Origin: an uncultured Chroococcidiopsis sp.
GTDB lineage: Bacteria; Cyanobacteriota; Cyanobacteriia; Cyanobacteriales; Chroococcidiopsidaceae
Assembly (NCBI GenBank): GCA_964248365.1
Contig: CAXTYC010000001.1
Location: 160,001 to 224,000, forward strand
Length of the DNA stretch: 64,000 bases
Direction of reading: 5' to 3'
Shown here: piece after piece, positions 11,144 through 22,516 of the stretch
Layout: each line of letters begins with the position of its first letter
How positions within the stretch are numbered: the first letter of the stretch is position 1
Made by a program: the position numbers and the translations under genes
Notes under the pieces: model-generated
What the model saw: the letters and a program-made list of their open reading frames with translations, nothing else
What the model was told of the DNA's origin: nothing
Databases searched by the model: none

Positions 11144-11318
11144 AAAGGGGATTAACCCTGATATCATCGATTGTGCAGTTTTGAGATAGCCTCTTAGTCA
11201 TGTGCATTCTAAGCGCGATACCAACGGTCACACAACGCCCAGGCGGAATGCTCTAAATTTAGGTAATTCAAGAGCTTTCTACTTATGATCAAAAGTAGGA
11301 ACTATTTAATTTTTGGGC

Positions 11319-14300
11319 ATGAAACGCATCGTCTTGATTGCTGGGTTTGAATCTTTCAACGCCGACTTGTACCGAAAGGCAGCTCAAGAAGCACTTATCA
11401 GCTGCCCAGAATTAGATATTAGGGTGTTTAGCGATCGCAATATCACTACCCACGCCGCAGAAGTAGAAGCAGCCCTGCAAGGAGCTGATGTGTTTTTCGG
11501 CAGTTTGCTATTTGATTATGACCAAGTATTATGGTTACGCGATCGCATATCTCACATCCCCATTCGCCTGGTGTTCGAGTCAGCCTTGGAATTAATGAGT
11601 TTGACTCAACTCGGTGCGTTTGCGATTGGCGACAAACCCAAAGGAATGCCCAAACCGATTAAATTCATCCTTGATAAATTCAGCCAGGGACGAGAAGAAG
11701 ACAGACTAGCTGGATATCTCAGCTTTTTGAAAGTAGGACCAAAATTATTAAAATACGTACCAGTGCAAAAAGTGCAAGACTTACGCAACTGGTTAATTAT
11801 CTATGGTTATTGGAATGCAGGCGGATCAGATAATGTTGCTGCCCTATTTTGGACACTAGCAGAAAAATATTTAGGAATCAAGGTAGGCGAGATTCCCCCG
11901 CCCCTCGAAACCCCCAACATGGGATTACTACATCCCGACTATCAAGGATTTTTTGAATCACCCCGCGCATACTTGGAATGGTATCAGGGCGAGAGGCGAG
12001 AGGCGTTAGCGAAGCGGGACGAAGTCCGAGGCGAGAGGCGAGAGGACAAGGAGACAATTACCAACTACCGTACGGGCGGGTTTATCAGACATACTTGTGA
12101 ACCTCCAGATACTCGTTTAAACCCGCCCCTACCAACTACCAATTACCAATTACCAGTAGTCGGCATACTGCTGTATCGCAAGCACGTAGTTACGCGCCAG
12201 CCTTATATTCCTCAATTGATTCGCAGCTTTGAACAAGCCGGATTAATACCTTTGCCTATATTTATCAATGGGGTAGAAGGTCATGTCGCTGTGCGAGATT
12301 GGATGACTACCACCCATGAAGTCGCGCAGAGACAACAAGGTAATGTAGAAATTCCTTCCCTGTCCGGTGAAGCAGTTCATGTAGATGCTATTGTCTCTAC
12401 AATTGGCTTTCCTTTAGTTGGTGGTCCTGCTGGCTCAATGGAAGCAGGGCGGCAAGTGGAAGTTGCTAAACGCATCCTGGGGGCTAAAAATGTACCTTAT
12501 ATAGTAGCTTCCCCACTACTGATTCAAGATATTCATTCTTGGACACGACAAGGCATTGGGGGGTTGCAAAGTGTCGTATTATATGCATTGCCAGAATTAG
12601 ATGGCGCGATCGATCCAGTTCCCTTGGGTGGCTTGGTGGGAGAAAAAATTTATCTAATTCCCGAACGGGTACAGCGTTTGATTGGTAGGGTGAAAAACTG
12701 GATTGCCTTGCGGCAAAAGCCAATATCAGAACGCAAAATTGCAGTTATTCTCTATGGCTTCCCGCCTGGTTACGGTGCTACGGGAACAGCTGCTTTACTC
12801 AATGTACCGCGATCGCTCCTCAAGTTCCTGCAAGCACTCAAAGCACAAGGTTACACTGTCGGCGATTTACCTGAAGATCCAGAAGAATTACTTCGCCGCG
12901 TCAAAGAGGCAGATGAAGATTTAATGTCACGCAAAGACGCAAAGGCGCTAAGAGATTCGGAAGGTTCCTTCCTTTGCGCCTTAGCGTCTTTGCGTGAAAC
13001 AAAATCACCAGTTATGGTTCACACGCGGATATTAGAAAAATGGCTGGGATATCTACATACATCTCGAATTGAGAAACATTGGACTTTGACGGGTAGTGGG
13101 ATTAAAACCTATGGAGATGAATTTTTACTCGGTGGTGTGCACTTAGGTAATGTTTGGATTGGTGTGCAGCCGCCATTAGGTATCCCTGGCGATCCGATGC
13201 GGCTGATGTTTGAGCGTGACTTAACTCCTCATCCTCAGTATGCAGCTTTTTATCAATGGTTGCAGCATGGTTTGCAAGCTGATGCTGTTGTTCATTTTGG
13301 GATGCACGGTACTGTTGAATGGTTGCCAGGATCTCCTTTGGGTAATACAGGTTACTCTTGGTCTGATATTCTCTTGGGGAATCTACCTAATCTTTATATA
13401 TATGCGGCTAATAATCCCTCAGAGTCAATTTTGGCAAAGCGGCGGGGTTATGGGGTGATCGTTTCTCATAATGTACCGCCTTATGGTCGGGCTGGGTTGT
13501 ATAAAGAATTAGTCGCCCTGCGAGATTTGATTTCGGAGTATCGGGAAGATCCAGAAAAAAATTATGCTCTGAAGGAGGCGATCTGCAAGAAGATTGTAGA
13601 TACGGGGTTAGATGCCGATTGTCCGTTTGAAGAGGCAAGGCGTTTGGGTATTGCTTTTACTCCTGAAAATGCACGGATGTTTAGTGCAGCTGTGTTTAAT
13701 TCTTATCTGGTGCAGTTGTATGAGTATTTGCAAGTTCTCGAAAATCGTCTTTTCTCTTCTGGGTTGCACGTATTTGGGGAACCTCCTACAACAGAGGAAC
13801 TGGCAAGTTATCTGAAGGCTTATTTTGGGGAGGAGTTGTCGGAGGAGGTGTTGAGTGCGATTACAGAAGGAAACGTAGACGCGGTAGCGGCTTCTCGAAG
13901 AGTACCGCAAAGACGCGCCAGCGAAGCGAAGGGCGATAGCCCGTTAGCACACGAAGGGGGGGAGGAGAGGATAGAAGAGGCGAGGCAAATACGTGATTTG
14001 TTGTTGCAAACAACTGATGAGTTAACAAATCTGTTGCGGGGGTTGAATGGTGAGTATATTTCGCCTGCACCAGGAGGGGATTTGCTCAGGGATGGTATGG
14101 GTGTTTTGCCGACGGGACGTAATATTCATGCTTTAGATCCTTATCGGATGCCGTCGCCTGCTGCTTATGAAAGGGGACGCGCGATCGCTCAAAATATTAT
14201 TACCCAGCATCTACAAGAACATGGGAAATATCCCGAAACTGTTGCTGTAATGTTATGGGGACTAGATGCAATCAAAACCAGGGGCGAATCTCTAGGTATT

Positions 14301-15287
14301 CTTCTAGAATTGGTAGGAGCTGAACCTGTTAAGGAGGGAACTGGGCGCATTGTCCGCTACGAGTTGAAACCTTTGGCAGATGTTGGACATCCGCGCATTG
14401 ATGTGCTAGGGAATCTCTCTGGTATTTTCCGCGATAGTTTTGTCAATATCATTGAATTACTCGATGACTTATTCCAACGGGCGGCTGATGCTGATGAACC
14501 AGAGGACAAAAATTTTATTCGCCTCCATGCTAAGGCTTTAAAAGCACAGGGCGTAGAAAATCCCTCGGCTAGGTTATTTTCTAACCCAGCAGGAGATTTT
14601 GGTTCAATGGTGAATGAGCGTGTGGTAGATAGTAGTTGGGAATCAGGCAATGAGTTGGGTGATACTTGGCGCGATCGCAATGTTTTTAGTTATGGTAGAC
14701 AAGATAAAGGTAATGCTAGACCAGAAATTCTCACTCAATTGTTGCACTCTTGCGATCGCATTGTGCAAGAAATTGACTCAGTTGAATATGGTCTAACTGA
14801 TATCCAAGAATACTACGCCAATACAGGCGGCTTGAAAAAAGCAGCCGAAAAACAACAGGGTAAAAAGGTTAACGCCAGTTTTGTCGAAAGCTTCTCTAAA
14901 GACACCACACCGCGCAACCTCGAAGACTTACTTAGAATGGAGTATCGCACCAAGTTACTGAACCCCAAGTGGGCGGAAGCAATGGCGAATCAAGGTTCAG
15001 GTGGTGCATTTGAAATTTCCCAGCGGATGACTGCACTCATTGGTTGGGGAGGTACTGCAAATTTTACTGATTCATGGGTATACGATGGAGCAGCCGATAC
15101 TTATGCCCTAGATCAAGATATGGCGCAAAAATTGCAACAAGCGAACCCTGAAGCCTTCCGCAATATTGTCGCCAGAATGCTAGAAGCGCATGGACGAGGT
15201 TTCTGGCAACCGAGTGAGGATAAGTTAGAAAAGCTACGCGAATTATACGAATTAACCGATGAGGAACTCGAAGGCGTAAAGATTTAA
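11319..15287 (+). CDS. bchH: Magnesium chelatase subunit H (BchH-type paralogue of ChlH, CobN/ChlH family)
   Basis: STIGFPLVGGPAG, HFGMHGTVEWLPG, YAANNPSES, LPTGRNIHALDP, KLLNPKWAE motifs; N-terminus MKRIVLIAGFESFN is typical of the second cyanobacterial H subunit. Confidence 0.85.
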   Translation: MKRIVLIAGFESFNADLYRKAAQEALISCPELDIRVFSDRNITTHAAEVEAALQGADVFFGSLLFDYDQVLWLRDRISHIPIRLVFESALELMSLTQLGAFAIGDKPKGMPKPIKFILDKFSQGREEDRLAGYLSFLKVGPKLLKYVPVQKVQDLRNWLIIYGYWNAGGSDNVAALFWTLAEKYLGIKVGEIPPPLETPNMGLLHPDYQGFFESPRAYLEWYQGERREALAKRDEVRGERREDKETITNYRTGGFIRHTCEPPDTRLNPPLPTTNYQLPVVGILLYRKHVVTRQPYIPQLIRSFEQAGLIPLPIFINGVEGHVAVRDWMTTTHEVAQRQQGNVEIPSLSGEAVHVDAIVSTIGFPLVGGPAGSMEAGRQVEVAKRILGAKNVPYIVASPLLIQDIHSWTRQGIGGLQSVVLYALPELDGAIDPVPLGGLVGEKIYLIPERVQRLIGRVKNWIALRQKPISERKIAVILYGFPPGYGATGTAALLNVPRSLLKFLQALKAQGYTVGDLPEDPEELLRRVKEADEDLMSRKDAKALRDSEGSFLCALASLRETKSPVMVHTRILEKWLGYLHTSRIEKHWTLTGSGIKTYGDEFLLGGVHLGNVWIGVQPPLGIPGDPMRLMFERDLTPHPQYAAFYQWLQHGLQADAVVHFGMHGTVEWLPGSPLGNTGYSWSDILLGNLPNLYIYAANNPSESILAKRRGYGVIVSHNVPPYGRAGLYKELVALRDLISEYREDPEKNYALKEAICKKIVDTGLDADCPFEEARRLGIAFTPENARMFSAAVFNSYLVQLYEYLQVLENRLFSSGLHVFGEPPTTEELASYLKAYFGEELSEEVLSAITEGNVDAVAASRRVPQRRASEAKGDSPLAHEGGEERIEEARQIRDLLLQTTDELTNLLRGLNGEYISPAPGGDLLRDGMGVLPTGRNIHALDPYRMPSPAAYERGRAIAQNIITQHLQEHGKYPETVAVMLWGLDAIKTRGESLGILLELVGAEPVKEGTGRIVRYELKPLADVGHPRIDVLGNLSGIFRDSFVNIIELLDDLFQRAADADEPEDKNFIRLHAKALKAQGVENPSARLFSNPAGDFGSMVNERVVDSSWESGNELGDTWRDRNVFSYGRQDKGNARPEILTQLLHSCDRIVQEIDSVEYGLTDIQEYYANTGGLKKAAEKQQGKKVNASFVESFSKDTTPRNLEDLLRMEYRTKLLNPKWAEAMANQGSGGAFEISQRMTALIGWGGTANFTDSWVYDGAADTYALDQDMAQKLQQANPEAFRNIVARMLEAHGRGFWQPSEDKLEKLRELYELTDEELEGVKI

Positions 15288-16284: not shown

Positions 16285-17793
16285 TCAATCAGCCTCAATT
16301 TGTCTGGCTACCGTCAGCGCTGAATAACTCACACCCGCTGTTCCTTCGCCTGGATGGGTGGAGTCACCAACTAACCACAGGTGCTTAATCGGTGTACGAG
16401 TAGCAAAACCAAAAGGACCAAAAGTAGGGATTCTTTGACCGATACCGCCGACTATACCTTGATCGCGCGCAGTATAACGGGCAAAGGTGCGGGGTGTAGC
16501 GGCTTCTTGGTGGAGAATGGTTTCTGGGGTGAGATGGAAGAATTGGGAAAGTTTTGCGATCGCCTCTTGTGTATACTTCTCCTTCATCGCCTCATAATCA
16601 TCATCTCGCCACCAAGGATTTGGATCTACAAACGAAGATGCAATAATTGTCGCCTTCCCTTCTGGGGCGCGTCCATCTCCTGGTTTGCTGACTGAGACAA
16701 ACAGAGAATTATTTTCCCCAATTGGACCCGTCGCATCATACATAAATTGTAAGTGGGGCGGACACCTTGGGGGAATGGCGCTTTCGTCTACACCCAAATA
16801 CACTACAAATGCACCTGACGCAGATGGTAGTTTTTCCACTCGCTGTTTGTAGCCTTGGGGTGCATTTTTACCCAATAATTGCACCAGATTTTGTACTGTT
16901 ACATTAGCAACTACATGATCGGCTGGTTCTGTCCAAGCTTCCCCAGTTTTCTGATTGCGAATTACTACACCCACTGCTTTACCATTCTCTACTTTGATGC
17001 GATCGCCAGTATGTTGCATTAATAGCTTACCGCCATCTCGTGTTAAAGATTCTTCTAGGCGATCGCTCAATACTTGCATACTACCTTGAAGATGAAATAA
17101 TCCTTGCGGTAACTGAGAAACACTCAATGCTGTCGCCGCATAAAGTAGGGCTGTTTCGTCTGCATCCACCTGAGAATAAAGCTTGAGTTGCAGATCTAAA
17201 AACGTCCTCAACCGCCAGTCATCTTCTAATCCATGACCGCGCAAAGCACCCCCTACTGTTAAAAAAGTGTAGGGTAGAGTAAACAAAGTTCCCAAACGCA
17301 ATGCTTTTGTTAGTTGCCACAAATCCCACACATTGCGCGGTGGTAAAATTGGATCGCGTTGCTGAAACTCCCAACTCGCCCTGAATAAGTCATCCATCAG
17401 TAACCAAAAGCGATCGCTACCAGGAAACTGTTGCTGTCTTTCTAGCTTCCACCTTTTGGGATCTCGCCAAACATTTATCGGTTGAGTTTCGCCAGGTAAA
17501 TACACCGCACAAGCAGGATCGCAGGGTGTTGCTGCTGGTAAATCTATTTCCAGTTCTGAGAAAATGCGATGGTGAATTCCTCCTGGTTCCAATCCCGCTA
17601 CTTGAGTAGCACCTACATCGAAAGTAAAGCCTTTGCGTTTGAAGGTAGAAGCACATCCCCCAGGTACAAGGGCTTGATCTACTACTATGACTTGATAGCC
17701 ACGCTTGCACAGTAACGCCCCAGCTGTCAAACCACCAATTCCAGCACCTATTACTACTACACGGGATTTATTATTGGCTTGACGGCTTGACAT
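16285..17793 (-). CDS. crtD: Carotenoid C-3',4' desaturase CrtD (myxoxanthophyll pathway)
   Basis: VIGAGIGGL FAD motif, GGCASTF...FDVGATQVAGLEPGGIH, GDSTHPGEGTAGVSYSA. Confidence 0.85.
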   Translation of the reverse strand: MSSRQANNKSRVVVIGAGIGGLTAGALLCKRGYQVIVVDQALVPGGCASTFKRKGFTFDVGATQVAGLEPGGIHHRIFSELEIDLPAATPCDPACAVYLPGETQPINVWRDPKRWKLERQQQFPGSDRFWLLMDDLFRASWEFQQRDPILPPRNVWDLWQLTKALRLGTLFTLPYTFLTVGGALRGHGLEDDWRLRTFLDLQLKLYSQVDADETALLYAATALSVSQLPQGLFHLQGSMQVLSDRLEESLTRDGGKLLMQHTGDRIKVENGKAVGVVIRNQKTGEAWTEPADHVVANVTVQNLVQLLGKNAPQGYKQRVEKLPSASGAFVVYLGVDESAIPPRCPPHLQFMYDATGPIGENNSLFVSVSKPGDGRAPEGKATIIASSFVDPNPWWRDDDYEAMKEKYTQEAIAKLSQFFHLTPETILHQEAATPRTFARYTARDQGIVGGIGQRIPTFGPFGFATRTPIKHLWLVGDSTHPGEGTAGVSYSALTVARQIEAD

Positions 17794-18011
17794 GAGTTAA
17801 GAGTTAAAAATTTCTTCTACACTATCTTTATATAATTTAGTTTAACCAATTTTCCACAATCAAGCAAATCTTATATTTCCAGCATCAATTAAAGCTTGTT
17901 TGAGCAAATTAGATGTTGAAGAACTTAGTTTAGGAAGGTTAGCTAGGATAAGCAAATCATAGTATTATTTAATTATTCTAGCTATCTTATTTAATTCAAT
18001 ATTTATTTCAT

Positions 18012-18917
18012 TCAAAAAGGAATATCAGCGTAGCTTGGCTCCACAGCTTTAGGAAGCTTTTGAATAGCTAGATATTTGAAGTTTATGTTACTTCTGGGAA
18101 TTAAACCATCAGCACCAGTAAGAAGATTATTTCTAATAACTGGTGGCAGTATAAGCGATGAGTGCAAATGAATGTCTCCTGCAGTATAGCTACGTATGAT
18201 TTTTGATTTAGTGCTGATGCTAACGTATGCCTCAATCTGCTCCATTAAACTAACAACTGATCTATAGTTCAAATCCGCTATTATAATAATACTGTTAGCA
18301 GGCATCTCTGTAATTAGAAAATCTAGGTTCTTAATAAATATTTCAGAATTAGAGATAAACTCGTTTAAGCAATTTTGGACAAAAAACAAATTACTAGTTT
18401 GAATTATGTCTCTAATTGAAGGGAAAACATTTTTTTGACATAGATTGAGACTATATCCATTTAGCGTGAATTCCCAACCTGGACATAAATTTGCTACAAC
18501 ATCCTTTGTAATTTCTCTACTTCTACTCCATGTACTTGCAGCAATGTCATAAGTATGGGCTACAGCATATTTAGCAGCGGAGTAATTAGAACTTAGGTAT
18601 TTTACCCAAGCAACAGTTTCAGGTGCTGGACCAGCACAAAAGAAACAAGCCTGTAACTTTCTAGAGCCTACAAAGCAAGAATGAAGGTAATTATAATTAA
18701 GATCACAAAGAACCTTAAAAGTCATTTCAGTATACTGTGGGTAGTAAGCCAGGAGATATGCCGCCTGGATATTAGAGTCACTGTAATCAACCGTCACTTG
18801 ATTTACTTTATAGCTCTGCCTTAACTGTTTTACATAATCCTGTAAACTTTGTAAGTAAAGTTCTACGTTATTAATTTGATTGTGCTTGACAATACCATCC
18901 AGAATGTAGCTATACAT
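18012..18917 (-). CDS. Hypothetical protein, probable class I SAM-dependent methyltransferase fold
   Basis: AAYLLAYYPQY helix, motif-I-like CFFCAGPAPE, acidic TYDIA, VQNCLNE; AT-rich; C-terminus EPSYADIPF. Confidence 0.55.
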   Translation of the reverse strand: MYSYILDGIVKHNQINNVELYLQSLQDYVKQLRQSYKVNQVTVDYSDSNIQAAYLLAYYPQYTEMTFKVLCDLNYNYLHSCFVGSRKLQACFFCAGPAPETVAWVKYLSSNYSAAKYAVAHTYDIAASTWSRSREITKDVVANLCPGWEFTLNGYSLNLCQKNVFPSIRDIIQTSNLFFVQNCLNEFISNSEIFIKNLDFLITEMPANSIIIIADLNYRSVVSLMEQIEAYVSISTKSKIIRSYTAGDIHLHSSLILPPVIRNNLLTGADGLIPRSNINFKYLAIQKLPKAVEPSYADIPF

Positions 18918-19084
18918 TGGAAGGGTTGATGTGCGTTTTACAATTCAAGGATAAAAAACACATCAACTATGTGATAACAGTACTTCCTCTGAATTATTTC
19001 AATATTGATTTTCCCTAATTTTACTTATGCTTTAGTTTATCTAATCTTCATTTTAAGCTAACACAAACTCCTTTGACTAAACTT

Positions 19085-19735
19085 TCATTTTATTACTCTG
19101 AAGGTAAGATTAATTCTTGGTTCAACTAACTTAGCTGTCTTTGGTATTTGATGCTGCCAAAAATGCTGAGTAGAACCTTTCATGAGCAGAAAAGTTCCAT
19201 GAGCTAAATTTACTTCCTTTTTTAGCTCTTTTTTGTACTTATGCCTAAACATAAAGCGTCGTGTTCCACCAAAGCTAACAGATCCAATTACTGGATTTTC
19301 ACCTAGTTCAGGTTCATCATCACTGTGCCAAGCTACGCTATCACTACCACTTCGATATAAATTAAGCAATACGCTATTAAATTCAACTCCTGATAAAACT
19401 TCTATTTTGGATTTTATTTCTAGTAATGTGGGAGTCCAAGGCTGAGGATTCATTGCTATTTTTGAGTATGTGTAGGACTTTCCACTATCTCCATACCAAG
19501 CTGTAAGTCTAGGTATAGGAACAGAATTACCATACATTTTTATATATTCTTGTTTCCAATTCGGATCGTTGTACAAATTTGAAAATAATTGATTACTTTC
19601 CTTTTCGTCAAATAAAGTTTGGTAGATAACAATATCACCTTCAGGCATTGATAATGAGTCTGCTATCGGCTGGCTTGTTTTTGGTGTCTTTTCTGAATTT
19701 TCTAATTTGTCCCAAAGACCCTTTTGCTTATACAT
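19085..19735 (-). CDS. alkB: Alpha-ketoglutarate-dependent dioxygenase, AlkB (ALKBH2/3-like) family
   Basis: IPRLTAWYG, FNSVLLNLYRSGSDSVAWHSDDE (HxD), WQHQIPK, RINLTFR. Confidence 0.9.
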   Translation of the reverse strand: MYKQKGLWDKLENSEKTPKTSQPIADSLSMPEGDIVIYQTLFDEKESNQLFSNLYNDPNWKQEYIKMYGNSVPIPRLTAWYGDSGKSYTYSKIAMNPQPWTPTLLEIKSKIEVLSGVEFNSVLLNLYRSGSDSVAWHSDDEPELGENPVIGSVSFGGTRRFMFRHKYKKELKKEVNLAHGTFLLMKGSTQHFWQHQIPKTAKLVEPRINLTFRVIK

Positions 19736-19907
19736 ATTAAACCGAATAATTCGCTACTTTGATCTTCCTCTAATTTAACTAATAATATGCTGCCTTTTGT
19801 ATTTTTAGGCAATGTTTAAAGATAGTGAATATATACGTGAAGATTTAGCAAATACTTACGCAGTAAGCAAGTAGTAGTAGGGTGTAGCAACGCACCCTAC
19901 AGACAAA

Positions 19908-21227
19908 CTAAAACATCCAGTTCACTTGCAAGCCTACAATATCGACAGAATTATCGAATTTCCCTGTCAAATTGCCGTTGGTTGTACTCACCTGATTGAT
20001 TTGGGTATCATCAACAAAAAGATGGGCATACCCTATATCAAAGCTGAGTGAGTCAGATGCTTTGTAACTTGCACCAATCGCTAGCCATGTCCGATTACTA
20101 TCAGGAATTCTCGGTGTGATATACTTTTCATCAGCAGGGCTTTCGTCATAGGCAACACCAGCACGTAATTGCCAAGCATTATTTAATGTGTAATTGACTC
20201 CCAACGCATAGCGAAAAGTGTCATGCCAATTTTCAGGTAGGACGCTATCGGGTTGTACTGGGTTATCGAATTTAATTCGTAACTCCTCAAAACGACTCCA
20301 ACCAGTCCAAGTAATATCGGCTGTAGCTGCTAGGCGCGGACTAAGTTGCTGGTAGGCGCTAAGTGATACTGTTGCAGGTAATTTCAATTTCGCCCTAATA
20401 TCACTATCTGTGAAGCGACCAGTTGCTGCCAAGGGTGCGGCGGCTGTAGGTACTCTAAAGTCTGCGTCTCCTTCTAAATTGTGCGTGATGGGGGAACGAA
20501 AAGCTAACCCAATTCTGGTATTCTGGCTAGGTTCGTACAGCAAACCCAGATTATATCCCCAACTCCAGTCATCGCCATTAAGTTCAACAAAACCGTCGGC
20601 TGTTTGAGGGCGTGTAGGTAATCTATTACCCAAGCCAATTAAACCGAAATCGATCCCATTGGTAAGTTTAGCATTTGCATATTGCAAGTTGATACCAGCG
20701 CCGACAGATAAGTTATCAGTTAGCTTAGCTGCTAGGGTGGGATTGATGTTGATCGTAGTCAGTTCTGAATCAATCGCGTAGTAACGCCCTACCCAGGTGT
20801 CATTGTATTTTGTTTTTAGACCAAAGGGCGAATTGATGCCTAAACCAAGCTTGATGCGATCGCTAACATCCCACGCAGCATACAAATTTGGTAGTAAGAT
20901 ATTAGCACCACCATCGCCACCATTATTCCCAGTAAGTGGAGTGCCTGTAACAATGGTAGATCCTCTGTTCTGGAATACAGCCGACGGAGATATATAGTAT
21001 ACAGCAGCATTTACAGAACTGCCTGATAAGCGAGTTAGCCCCGCTGGATTAAAAAATATTGTACTGGCATCTTCAGCCGCCGCACTGCCAGAAAAGGCAT
21101 TGCCCAAACCACGTACACTCTGTTCAGTAATCGCAAAGCCTGACGCTAAAGCAGAAGCAGCTGTACCAATAATACCCAAACACACCAAAAACGGCAACAA
21201 CGCCGCATTCAATCGAAGCTTTCTCAC
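19908..21227 (-). CDS. fadL: Outer-membrane long-chain fatty acid transport protein (FadL/OmpP1 family)
   Basis: Signal peptide, SGFAITEQS, FFNPAGLT (NPA motif), RIPDSNR, terminal aromatic residue (WMF). Confidence 0.85.
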   Translation of the reverse strand: MRKLRLNAALLPFLVCLGIIGTAASALASGFAITEQSVRGLGNAFSGSAAAEDASTIFFNPAGLTRLSGSSVNAAVYYISPSAVFQNRGSTIVTGTPLTGNNGGDGGANILLPNLYAAWDVSDRIKLGLGINSPFGLKTKYNDTWVGRYYAIDSELTTININPTLAAKLTDNLSVGAGINLQYANAKLTNGIDFGLIGLGNRLPTRPQTADGFVELNGDDWSWGYNLGLLYEPSQNTRIGLAFRSPITHNLEGDADFRVPTAAAPLAATGRFTDSDIRAKLKLPATVSLSAYQQLSPRLAATADITWTGWSRFEELRIKFDNPVQPDSVLPENWHDTFRYALGVNYTLNNAWQLRAGVAYDESPADEKYITPRIPDSNRTWLAIGASYKASDSLSFDIGYAHLFVDDTQINQVSTTNGNLTGKFDNSVDIVGLQVNWMF

Positions 21228-21533
21228 TGTGATTTCTAATTTTTCGGTACACCAACTATAGACCTTTGAGATGTTACACTTATAGCTTTAAAGTAAATAA
21301 ATAAATTATTAAATAGTTACAATTTTTTATAGTTTTGCTCATTAAGTTGATTAATTCGTAATTTATAATTTTGCTTACTCTCCTACGGGAATTTACCAAA
21401 CATTCTTGTAAGTACGGGCTGAGCGTCGCTATATGCCTTTACAGTATATGATGACTTTTTTAATATTGAGAATTACAAAATAACGAAACTAGTGGAGAGA
21501 TTATTAACGAACAATGAACAAGTGGTAATTGGG

Positions 21534-21580
21534 AATTGATAATTGATAATTGATAATTGATAATTGATAATTGATAATTG
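21534..21580. repeat. STRR heptamer array (AATTGAT)x6+
   Basis: Six perfect AATTGAT units plus a partial unit directly upstream of ureD. Confidence 0.9.
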
Positions 21581-21598
21581 TCCCCCAGCCCCTTACCA

Positions 21599-22516
21599 AT
21601 GCAGACACTATCTAATCAGTGGCATGGTAGCCTTAACTTGGTGTTTGCTAAAGTTCAGAATAAAACTGAACTAATTTACAATCAGGTACAAGCGCCCCTG
21701 AAGGTACAGCGACCATTTTATCCAGAAGGATCAGAGGTTTGTCATAGTGTAGTATTGCATACAGCAGGGGGAATTGTCGGTGGCGATCGCTTAGATTTAA
21801 ATTTCCAACTGCAACAGGAAGCGAAAGCTTTAATTACTACAGCTGCTGCAAGTAAAATTTATCGTAGTAATGGGTTACAAGCACGACAATCCATTCAGAT
21901 GCAAGTTGACGCTGATGCTACTTTAGAATGGTTGCCCCAGGAAACAATTGTATTCAATGGTGCAATTTATCGCCAAGACTTGAGAGTAGAATTAGCTCCG
22001 AAAGCAACTTGGATAGGCTGGGAGATTACAAGATTTGGGCGTAGTGCCAGAGGAGAAAGATTTCTACAGGGAGAGTGGCGCAGTAATACCGAAGTTTGGC
22101 AGCAAGGCATCCCCCTTTGGATAGATAGACAATGGCTACCAGGTAATGAGGAAATCATCAACAGTCCTCACGGCTTAGCAAAACAACCGATTGTAGCAAG
22201 CCTCGCCTGGATAGGGCAACCAGTCTCACCAGAAATAGTAGAACTAGCACGTTCCTTGTGGAGTCCCACGTCAGAAGCCAGAAGTCAGGAGACAGGAGTT
22301 AGGAGTCAGGAGACCCACGAAGATCGACCCACGACAGAATATTTAATTCTTTCATCTCCCTCATTTGGTGTTACTCGTCTTCCTTGTGGATTATTATGTC
22401 GCTATCGTGGCTCTTCTACCACACAAGTGCGAAACTGGTTTACAGCTGTGTGGCAGCTATTGCGTGTATCCTATTTAGGACGCTCTAGCTGTCTACCTAG
22501 AGTTTGGCAAATCTGA
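21599..22516 (+). CDS. ureD: Urease accessory protein UreD
   Basis: PLKVQRPFYPEG, LHTAGGIVGGD, TTAAASKIYRS, LEWLPQETI; precedes ureABC. Confidence 0.92.
   Translation: MQTLSNQWHGSLNLVFAKVQNKTELIYNQVQAPLKVQRPFYPEGSEVCHSVVLHTAGGIVGGDRLDLNFQLQQEAKALITTAAASKIYRSNGLQARQSIQMQVDADATLEWLPQETIVFNGAIYRQDLRVELAPKATWIGWEITRFGRSARGERFLQGEWRSNTEVWQQGIPLWIDRQWLPGNEEIINSPHGLAKQPIVASLAWIGQPVSPEIVELARSLWSPTSEARSQETGVRSQETHEDRPTTEYLILSSPSFGVTRLPCGLLCRYRGSSTTQVRNWFTAVWQLLRVSYLGRSSCLPRVWQI

Follow-up and report, generated by a model that had tools for sequence, protein, structure and literature searches.

A patchily distributed pairing of a predicted methyltransferase with an AlkB dioxygenase in Chroococcidiopsis and other bacteria: a possible writer/eraser module

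In DarTG and related modify/erase toxin-antitoxin systems, a toxin modifies single-stranded nucleic acid, and a partner enzyme removes the mark. A similar logic, in which a toxin marks and its partner erases, is proposed here for two adjacent genes of an uncultured Chroococcidiopsis sp., one encoding a putative methyltransferase of 301 amino acids (aa) and the other an AlkB protein of 216 aa, found in a 64,000-nt window (positions 160,001 to 224,000 of contig CAXTYC010000001.1, assembly GCA_964248365.1) to which coordinates refer. There is no homology between the two systems, as DarTG uses ADP-ribosylation and a macrodomain or NADAR, whereas methylation and a dioxygenase or radical-SAM-like protein would be involved here. 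The nearest printed link is the UG25 reverse-transcriptase system, for which the accessible part of the source describes an N-terminal methyltransferase domain associated with DUF1848, together with an inconclusive defence prediction (PMC9226505); the two are likened by description only and, unlike in UG25, no reverse-transcriptase fusion was found among 107 longer methyltransferase homologues. The pair itself is a real, widespread but patchy module of known folds, and apparently an undescribed one: no description of it was found in the full-text literature searched, which leaves out most subscription papers and bioRxiv supplements.

Both genes lie on the minus strand, alkB at 19085..19735 and the methyltransferase gene at 18012..18917, with 167 nt between them. 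That they are neighbours elsewhere, as their original prediction as a functional pair would imply, is well supported, with AlkB lying immediately upstream, in the same orientation, in 30 of 37 methyltransferase loci from GTDB genomes (one at a locus edge). A broader set of 81 loci was pooled from GTDB, metagenome, plasmid and genome searches after removal of exact duplicates, those retrieved by way of AlkB, of the host genome or of flanks being left out. At the 64 loci with 900 nt or more on each side, and counting partners within 800 nt, the methyltransferase is accompanied by AlkB (43 loci), DUF1848 (10) or both (8), and by neither at three, so that 61 of 64 have a partner. Two of the three partnerless loci are the same Thermoflexus-like site, and the one genome checked carries DUF1848 on the same contig, at a distance of 192 kb, but yields no match to AlkB. 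The third carries a truncated methyltransferase gene, with an AlkB elsewhere in the genome. Five arrangements are observed (AlkB upstream, downstream or divergent; DUF1848 co-oriented or convergent), one protein (P0254) is a DUF1848-methyltransferase fusion, and all three distant Chloroflexota matches adjoin DUF1848. Genomes whose locus lacks AlkB have no AlkB match genome-wide in four of five cases. No AlkB-methyltransferase fusion was detected among 44 proteins scanned or the 107 longer homologues; P0123 and P0127, considered as such, were rejected, their extra regions being pentapeptide or coiled-coil.

DUF1848 as a stand-in for AlkB had been missed by the original prediction. Its model is a radical-SAM-like barrel whose top fold matches are radical SAM enzymes, at modest Z scores of 8–9.6, and a CxxxCxxC motif is invariant, but near the C-terminus. 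A QLELF-like C-terminal peptide, defined by a loose pattern, is found in 12 of 17 distinct copies. DUF1848 also occurs in 45 small genomes of one family (f51), judged by size and rank to be probably the non-photosynthetic gut lineage, where neither the methyltransferase nor an ALKBH2/3-type AlkB was found. There (L149–L178) it stands alone in varied contexts, often ending in NLKLF-, QTLF- or QISLF-like peptides, and is a candidate oxygen-independent repair enzyme.

The dependence between the partners appears to run one way. Among the 401 Cyanobacteriota genomes of a single sample, the methyltransferase is found in 18 (two as fragments) and ALKBH2/3-type AlkB in 55, with both in 17; the 18th methyltransferase genome has DUF1848, so that all 18 have a partner, while 38 of the 55 AlkB genomes are without the methyltransferase. 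Decay shows a comparable asymmetry, as in seven loci the methyltransferase is split and its AlkB neighbour intact, the opposite case being absent (L118, L122 and L124, labelled broken in the AlkB tree but at contig ends or with distant homologues, and the "solo" L046, with a cut-off distant methyltransferase, were excluded from this count). A further methyltransferase remnant beside an intact AlkB occurs in G245, and at one site shared by L037 and L047 the methyltransferase is broken in one and missing in the other. In a quick AlkB tree, solo AlkBs nest among paired ones. The methyltransferase diverges faster, with a mean identity of 37% vs 55% for AlkB, and its pairwise distances correlate with those of AlkB (Spearman 0.56, for 31 pairs out of 43), which kinship alone could cause.

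What kind of protein is the 301-aa partner? It has 1074 relatives at E ≤ 0.001, but searches of Pfam, NCBIfam, PADLOC and PDB sequences assigned it to no family. Its AF2 model (pLDDT, the predicted local distance difference test, 92.6) is that of a class I S-adenosylmethionine (SAM) methyltransferase with a Rossmann-like seven-strand fold, and this model and its fold matches bear out the enzyme class originally proposed. The best three of 48161 chains (VIA-align) are mitoribosome assembly-intermediate chains of the mt-SAF1/METTL17/Rsm22 type, with Z scores of 20.9, 20.6 and 18.5, aligned at a root-mean-square deviation of 4.1–5.0 over 243–266 residues, other class I methyltransferases reaching at most 17.1; one Foldseek match also names METTL17/Rsm22. 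The extended whole-chain fold is thus common to the 301-aa protein and to Rsm22, METTL17 and a trypanosome small-subunit assembly factor (PDB 8d8j_0, 8csp_7, 6sg9_F1), but identity is 8–12%, these are mitoribosome factors rather than parts of a mobile bacterial cassette, and Rsm22 is not among the Pfam families listed as matches for the protein or its family.

The SAM-binding motifs are intact. In an alignment of 75 diverse members, the motif I region CFFCAGPAPE (residues 91–100; 18618..18647, minus strand) contains the invariant G96 and E100, D124 (which ends the following strand) and Q181 being likewise invariant, and the Gly position 94 of motif I is Cys in the host protein, as in 3 of the 75. 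The family signature QNCLNE (18360..18377, minus strand) follows strand 4 at the active-site position, and its Cys183 is kept in 74 of 75 members but not in a sister subfamily, tied to the family by HHalign (99.6%). One of four tested sister members (L081) passes the Pfam cut-off for PF11312, the others matching at E 2–5e-5, and PF11312 occurs in 14% and 44% of members of the nearest ESM Atlas clusters. PF11312 (Methyltransf_34) is linked to EC 2.1.1.312, the activity of Bmt6, in the available part of PMC5307852, and Bmt6 is described as the yeast 25S rRNA m3U2843 writer, making N3-methyluridine (m3U), with orthologues reported in lower eukaryotes only in the accessible text of PMC3950682, unlike the bacterial family considered here. 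The sister subfamily reaches PF11312 whereas the 301-aa protein does not, and a Bmt6-like substrate can only be suggested for it.

The AlkB protein is more conventional. It matches PF13532 at E 6e-36, above the cut-off, as the only such match found in the host genome, and human ALKBH3 (E 1e-45) and ALKBH2 are the nearest solved structures, in line with an ALKBH2/3-type Fe(II)/2-oxoglutarate (2OG) dioxygenase. Its metal ligands (H137, D139, H195), R207 and R213 are invariant in 24 homologues. The dioxygenase part of the PADLOC model CARF_2OG matches it at E 2e-53, but the CARF domain is absent here. The AlkB of the Synechocystis plasmid pSYSA shares 49% identity with it, and is taken here to be slr7097, because the slr7xxx numbers presumably denote pSYSA genes. 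Like ALKBH2 and ALKBH3, slr7097 belongs to the subfamily of the host AlkB, with intact metal and 2OG ligands. According to the part of PMC3265494 available, slr7097 raises the survival of phages treated with methyl methanesulfonate (MMS) in alkB-null E. coli, ~8-fold for M13 and ~7-fold for MS2, without complementing chromosomal MMS mutagenesis, and cyanobacterial AlkBs act better on the single-stranded RNA phage MS2 than on M13. This subfamily therefore seems to erase N-methyl lesions on single strands. The same text presents slr7097 as a stand-alone repair enzyme and does not mention the word "operon", whereas the host AlkB is one half of a pair.

Peptides of the Q-[LI]-x-L-[WF] type resemble the beta-clamp-binding consensus. 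Near the AlkB N-terminus, QKGLW (19712..19726, minus strand) is a degenerate copy of this motif, which reads QLSLF, QLNLW or QISLW in aligned homologues. The clamp-like N-terminus proposed by the original prediction is thus recurrent, but 26 of 49 paired AlkBs and 4 of 6 solo ones have it, and it is best described, from sequence, as a candidate clamp-like peptide generic to cyanobacterial ALKBH2/3-type AlkBs and degenerate in the host. Its support comes from these homologues and not from the host count, as QxxL[FW] within the first 15 aa occurs in 16 host open reading frames (ORFs) vs 13.8 expected, a chance level for the motif alone. In a few paired AlkBs (L015, L027, L030, L036, L093, L101, L118) an N-terminal extension replaces this peptide, matching HTH_28/29 in L030, and the adjacent methyltransferases, where complete, have a hydrophobic, membrane-anchor-like end.

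The methyltransferase ends in EPSYADIPF (18015..18041, minus strand), a flexible, low-confidence part of the model (pLDDT 56–57 at the last residues). Tips of SSB, a protein that binds single-stranded DNA, consist of an [ILV]-Pro-Phe that closes a flexible tail and is preceded by acidic residues, following the accessible text of PMC10164576; here, DIPF ends a flexible segment whose acidic residues are a single Asp and a Glu further off, fewer than in DVDDIPF, the end of a host SSB. A [DE][ILVM]PF end is found in only three of the 4298 ORFs of the host, vs 0.22 expected: the methyltransferase, this SSB and a 147-aa ORF beside another SSB. DIPF-like tails occur alike in cyanobacterial and Chloroflexota-type sequences, but among 147 homologues of 280–350 aa an [ILVM]P[FY] end is present in 42 (preceded by D or E in 29) and absent from 105, and the pSYSA and other plasmid copies of the methyltransferase lack it. 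Longer members instead carry TPR, Hsp70, S1, NERD, TBP-TOTE, HTH, or DEAD or UvrD helicase extensions, and some a coiled coil and an apparent membrane anchor (read by eye). The expectation that homologues keep the tail holds in so far as it recurs across clades, and fails for most short homologues and for the long forms, in which extensions replace it; from sequence comparison, the tail looks like a real but optional targeting module. Prophage DUF669 proteins, which have DDDIPF tails, have been suggested to mimic SSB tails, in the part of PMC13687109 available; there too an SSB-type tail sits on a non-SSB protein, but the DUF669 proteins are ssDNA-repair proteins, while here the tail is optional and borne by an enzyme. 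Docking of the DIPF tail on the pair's own AlkB was considered and set aside; E. coli AlkB reportedly binds the SSB linker and not the tip, according to the accessible text of PMC10164576.

Some related observations can be added. The host has three SSB genes (L040, L041, L042), one ending in DDIPF and the others in AEEF and NANF. The 147-aa ORF (G000:C72:2570-3013, plus strand; L041:1956-2399) ends in DSEIPF directly after the second SSB gene, and is probably a plasmid or phage OB-fold protein with an SSB-type tail. Many proteins of ~850 aa (among P0162–P0348, e.g., P0271), the named ones from Bacteroidota, fuse the methyltransferase to an Hsp70-like domain.

The pair lies in a low-GC island (17800..19900, no strand), in a variable intergenic slot. 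As originally described, both ORFs are co-oriented between "crtD", the name then given to a FAD oxidoreductase gene (Pfam supports Amino_oxidase/NAD_binding_8 only), and an OMPP1/FadL/TodX gene, and the sequences FCAGPAPE (residues 93–100) and EPSYADIPF in the methyltransferase and MYKQKGLWD at the start of AlkB are all present. The AT-rich, HIP1-free character of this DNA also stands: the GC content of the island is 0.331 vs 0.434 for the genome, equally low in 0.27% of 2614 2.1-kb tiles, and the HIP1 octamer GCGATCGC, which occurs about once per kb in the host genome, is absent. The HIP1 gap spans 17410–20856 (3446 nt) and is matched by 2.7% of 5455 genome gaps; GC is the stronger foreign signal, because 12% of 2.1-kb host tiles are without HIP1 anyway. 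Among 60 relatives, the 301-aa protein is matched in one only (G019), as a remnant in which a single deletion has left the first part of alkB joined to the last part of the methyltransferase gene, and five same-genus relatives keep both flanking genes (one as a fadL remnant only) with other ORFs in between. Recent acquisition is the simplest reading of these data, in agreement with the horizontal transfer suggested at first.

No terminal direct repeats or att-like sites were seen around the island, no LexA-like box was found upstream, and there is no excess of promoters or terminators. An inverted repeat of 16 bp (18925..18967, no strand) ends 8 nt ahead of the methyltransferase start codon and is possibly a translation damper or a terminator; the whole 191-nt region with this hairpin folds no better than shuffled sequences (z 0.13), and the hairpin is not conserved in ten other loci. 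The crtD-fadL slot was also considered as a defence hotspot, which is unsupported: read by eye, the ORFs in this slot of relatives are kinase-like, small or membrane proteins. In relatives (L138, L139, L140), this interval contains Ala/Gly/Ser-rich ORFs of 77–108 aa resembling peptide precursors. Elsewhere in the window, short elements at 21500–21590 and 22260–22315, the second inside a ureD-like ORF, have many copies across same-genus genomes, and a chelatase-like ORF of 1324 aa (11313–15287) harbors in-frame low-complexity insertions (e.g., TTNYQLP-type repeats).

The pair is mobile. The pSYSA copy lies just past a type III CRISPR locus; other copies are found on a Planktothrix plasmid, on a Picosynechococcus plasmid beside DUF1156/DUF499, and, again on a plasmid, beside a type I restriction-modification (RM) system, and sister-subfamily copies on two mobilisable Nostocales plasmids. 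In another locus (L114:135-14422), DUF1848 and the methyltransferase are inside a BREX-like cluster (PglZ-like, 1464-aa helicase-like, PglX-like, DUF3800, BrxL). No phage or viral copy was found, viral fold matches being generic.

The reading that we favor, tentatively and at a little short of an even chance, is a mobile writer/eraser module combining an N-methylating toxin with an eraser antidote. The methyltransferase would use SAM to N-methylate a base of single-stranded nucleic acid on its base-pairing face, giving marks of the m3U, m3T (N3-methylthymidine), m3C (N3-methylcytidine) or m1A (N1-methyladenosine) class that block copying or decoding. Docked at the fork via its clamp-like peptide, the co-transcribed AlkB would remove the mark oxidatively and protect the host, and in other lineages DUF1848, radical-SAM-like and with a clamp-like end, would substitute for it. 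The optional SSB-like tail, or the TPR, membrane, Hsp70 or helicase extensions, may aim or trigger the writer, and the payoff would most likely be anti-phage or anti-plasmid defence, or addiction. A toxin with an erasing escort is favored because the writer hardly ever lacks an escort, this being one of two unrelated, fork-tagged enzymes of the repair type, and because the methyltransferase goes missing or breaks where the escort persists, and swaps its C-terminal modules; its fusions with NERD, TBP-TOTE and helicases are also counted in favor. Several points weigh against this reading. The 301-aa protein has no PF11312 match, and 10 of the 75 members match only at E of at least 0.019; this distant kinship thus suggests m3U chemistry without fixing it. 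Moreover, m3U and m3T are weaker ALKBH3 substrates than m1A and m3C, and METTL17/Rsm22, whose folds are closest, are assembly factors that bind rRNA. The loci behind the partner counts include close kin and are not independent, the numbers are small, and the role of DUF1848 as a partner is taken for granted in them. The seven-to-none decay asymmetry is weak once gene length is allowed for (p about 0.03–0.07, by hand), and hence only suggestive, five of the seven loci come from metagenome-assembled genomes or metagenome contigs, and one-way dependence with faster decay would fit any dispensable accessory gene. As for defence, a scan of 36 neighbourhoods (covering 145 neighbour proteins with PADLOC and, with NCBIfam, 74 chosen ones, of which 71 belong to those 145) shows that the BREX, CRISPR and RM neighbours anticipated from a defence role do occur, but that convincing defence neighbours are restricted to 7 of 36, a raw count with no control, housekeeping genes being found mostly. 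No PADLOC model matches the methyltransferase, and in several Microcoleus/Tychonema genomes the pair has a fixed site at which it is inherited.

How well do other explanations account for the same data? A harmless repair factor explains the linkage almost as well as a toxin does. The pair would then be an accessory operon for alkylation-damage repair or tolerance, an unlikely reading but a serious one, in which the methyltransferase-fold protein helps repair, acting as a SAM-binding sensor or scaffold that gathers SSB-interacting proteins by its tail, or methylating a protein or a lesion, the partners serving one damage response. This agrees with the AlkB being the host's only one, with the frequency of AlkB and DUF1848 as stand-alone genes with clamp-like ends, with the mostly housekeeping neighbours, and with the repair of MMS damage by the pSYSA AlkB (PMC3265494, available part). 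At one locus (L150) AlkB and DUF1848 adjoin without the methyltransferase, and all three genes are together at the eight loci mentioned above; the L150 arrangement indicates that repair genes cluster anyway, and counts against a toxin. A repair operon nevertheless accounts poorly for the rapid divergence, varied C-terminal fusions and intact SAM site of the methyltransferase, for its near-absence without a partner, and for the lack of an upstream LexA-like box. A reversible mark on rRNA, tRNA or mRNA, tuning or pausing translation until AlkB resets it, would suit the nearest folds and Pfam family, which act on rRNA, the existing fusions to S1 RNA-binding domains, and the higher efficacy of cyanobacterial AlkBs on MS2 (PMC3265494, available part); it is improbable, as the clamp-like ends seen on AlkB and DUF1848 alike, together with the SSB-like tail, favor DNA at forks, and a patchy mobile distribution (18 of 401 genomes) is unlike that of core rRNA enzymes. 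Least probable is the modify-then-oxidise scheme also raised in the original prediction, in which methylation followed by stable oxidation by AlkB, or by DUF1848 radical chemistry, gives a protective hypermodified base. A writer plus oxidase with an exchangeable second enzyme has the architecture expected, but AlkB is an ordinary ALKBH2/3-type eraser, solo in 38 of 55 genomes, no phage copy was found, and no glycosyl- or other transferase is seen among conserved neighbours; the scheme is disfavored because the Synechocystis homologue of this AlkB acts on MMS lesions as an ordinary eraser (PMC3265494, available part).

Returning to the toxin-antidote reading, if the writer makes marks of the m1A, m3C or m3U type, the pair would represent a methylation-based toxin-antidote or defence system and a programmable source of "alkylation damage", and would offer a handle on two orphan families, the bacterial PF11312-like methyltransferases and DUF1848. 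It is directly testable, as the model strain Synechocystis PCC 6803 carries a homologous pair on its plasmid pSYSA (methyltransferase WP_011153766), the AlkB half of which has published activity. A bolder and more doubtful form of this reading is a new toxin chemistry, in which an enzyme deliberately makes the cytotoxic N-alkyl lesions repaired by AlkB, aimed at forks or phage single strands by an SSB-mimic tail. If true, AlkB would gain an endogenous enzymatic adversary, and DUF1848, common where ALKBH2/3-type AlkB is not found, would be its oxygen-independent radical-SAM counterpart.

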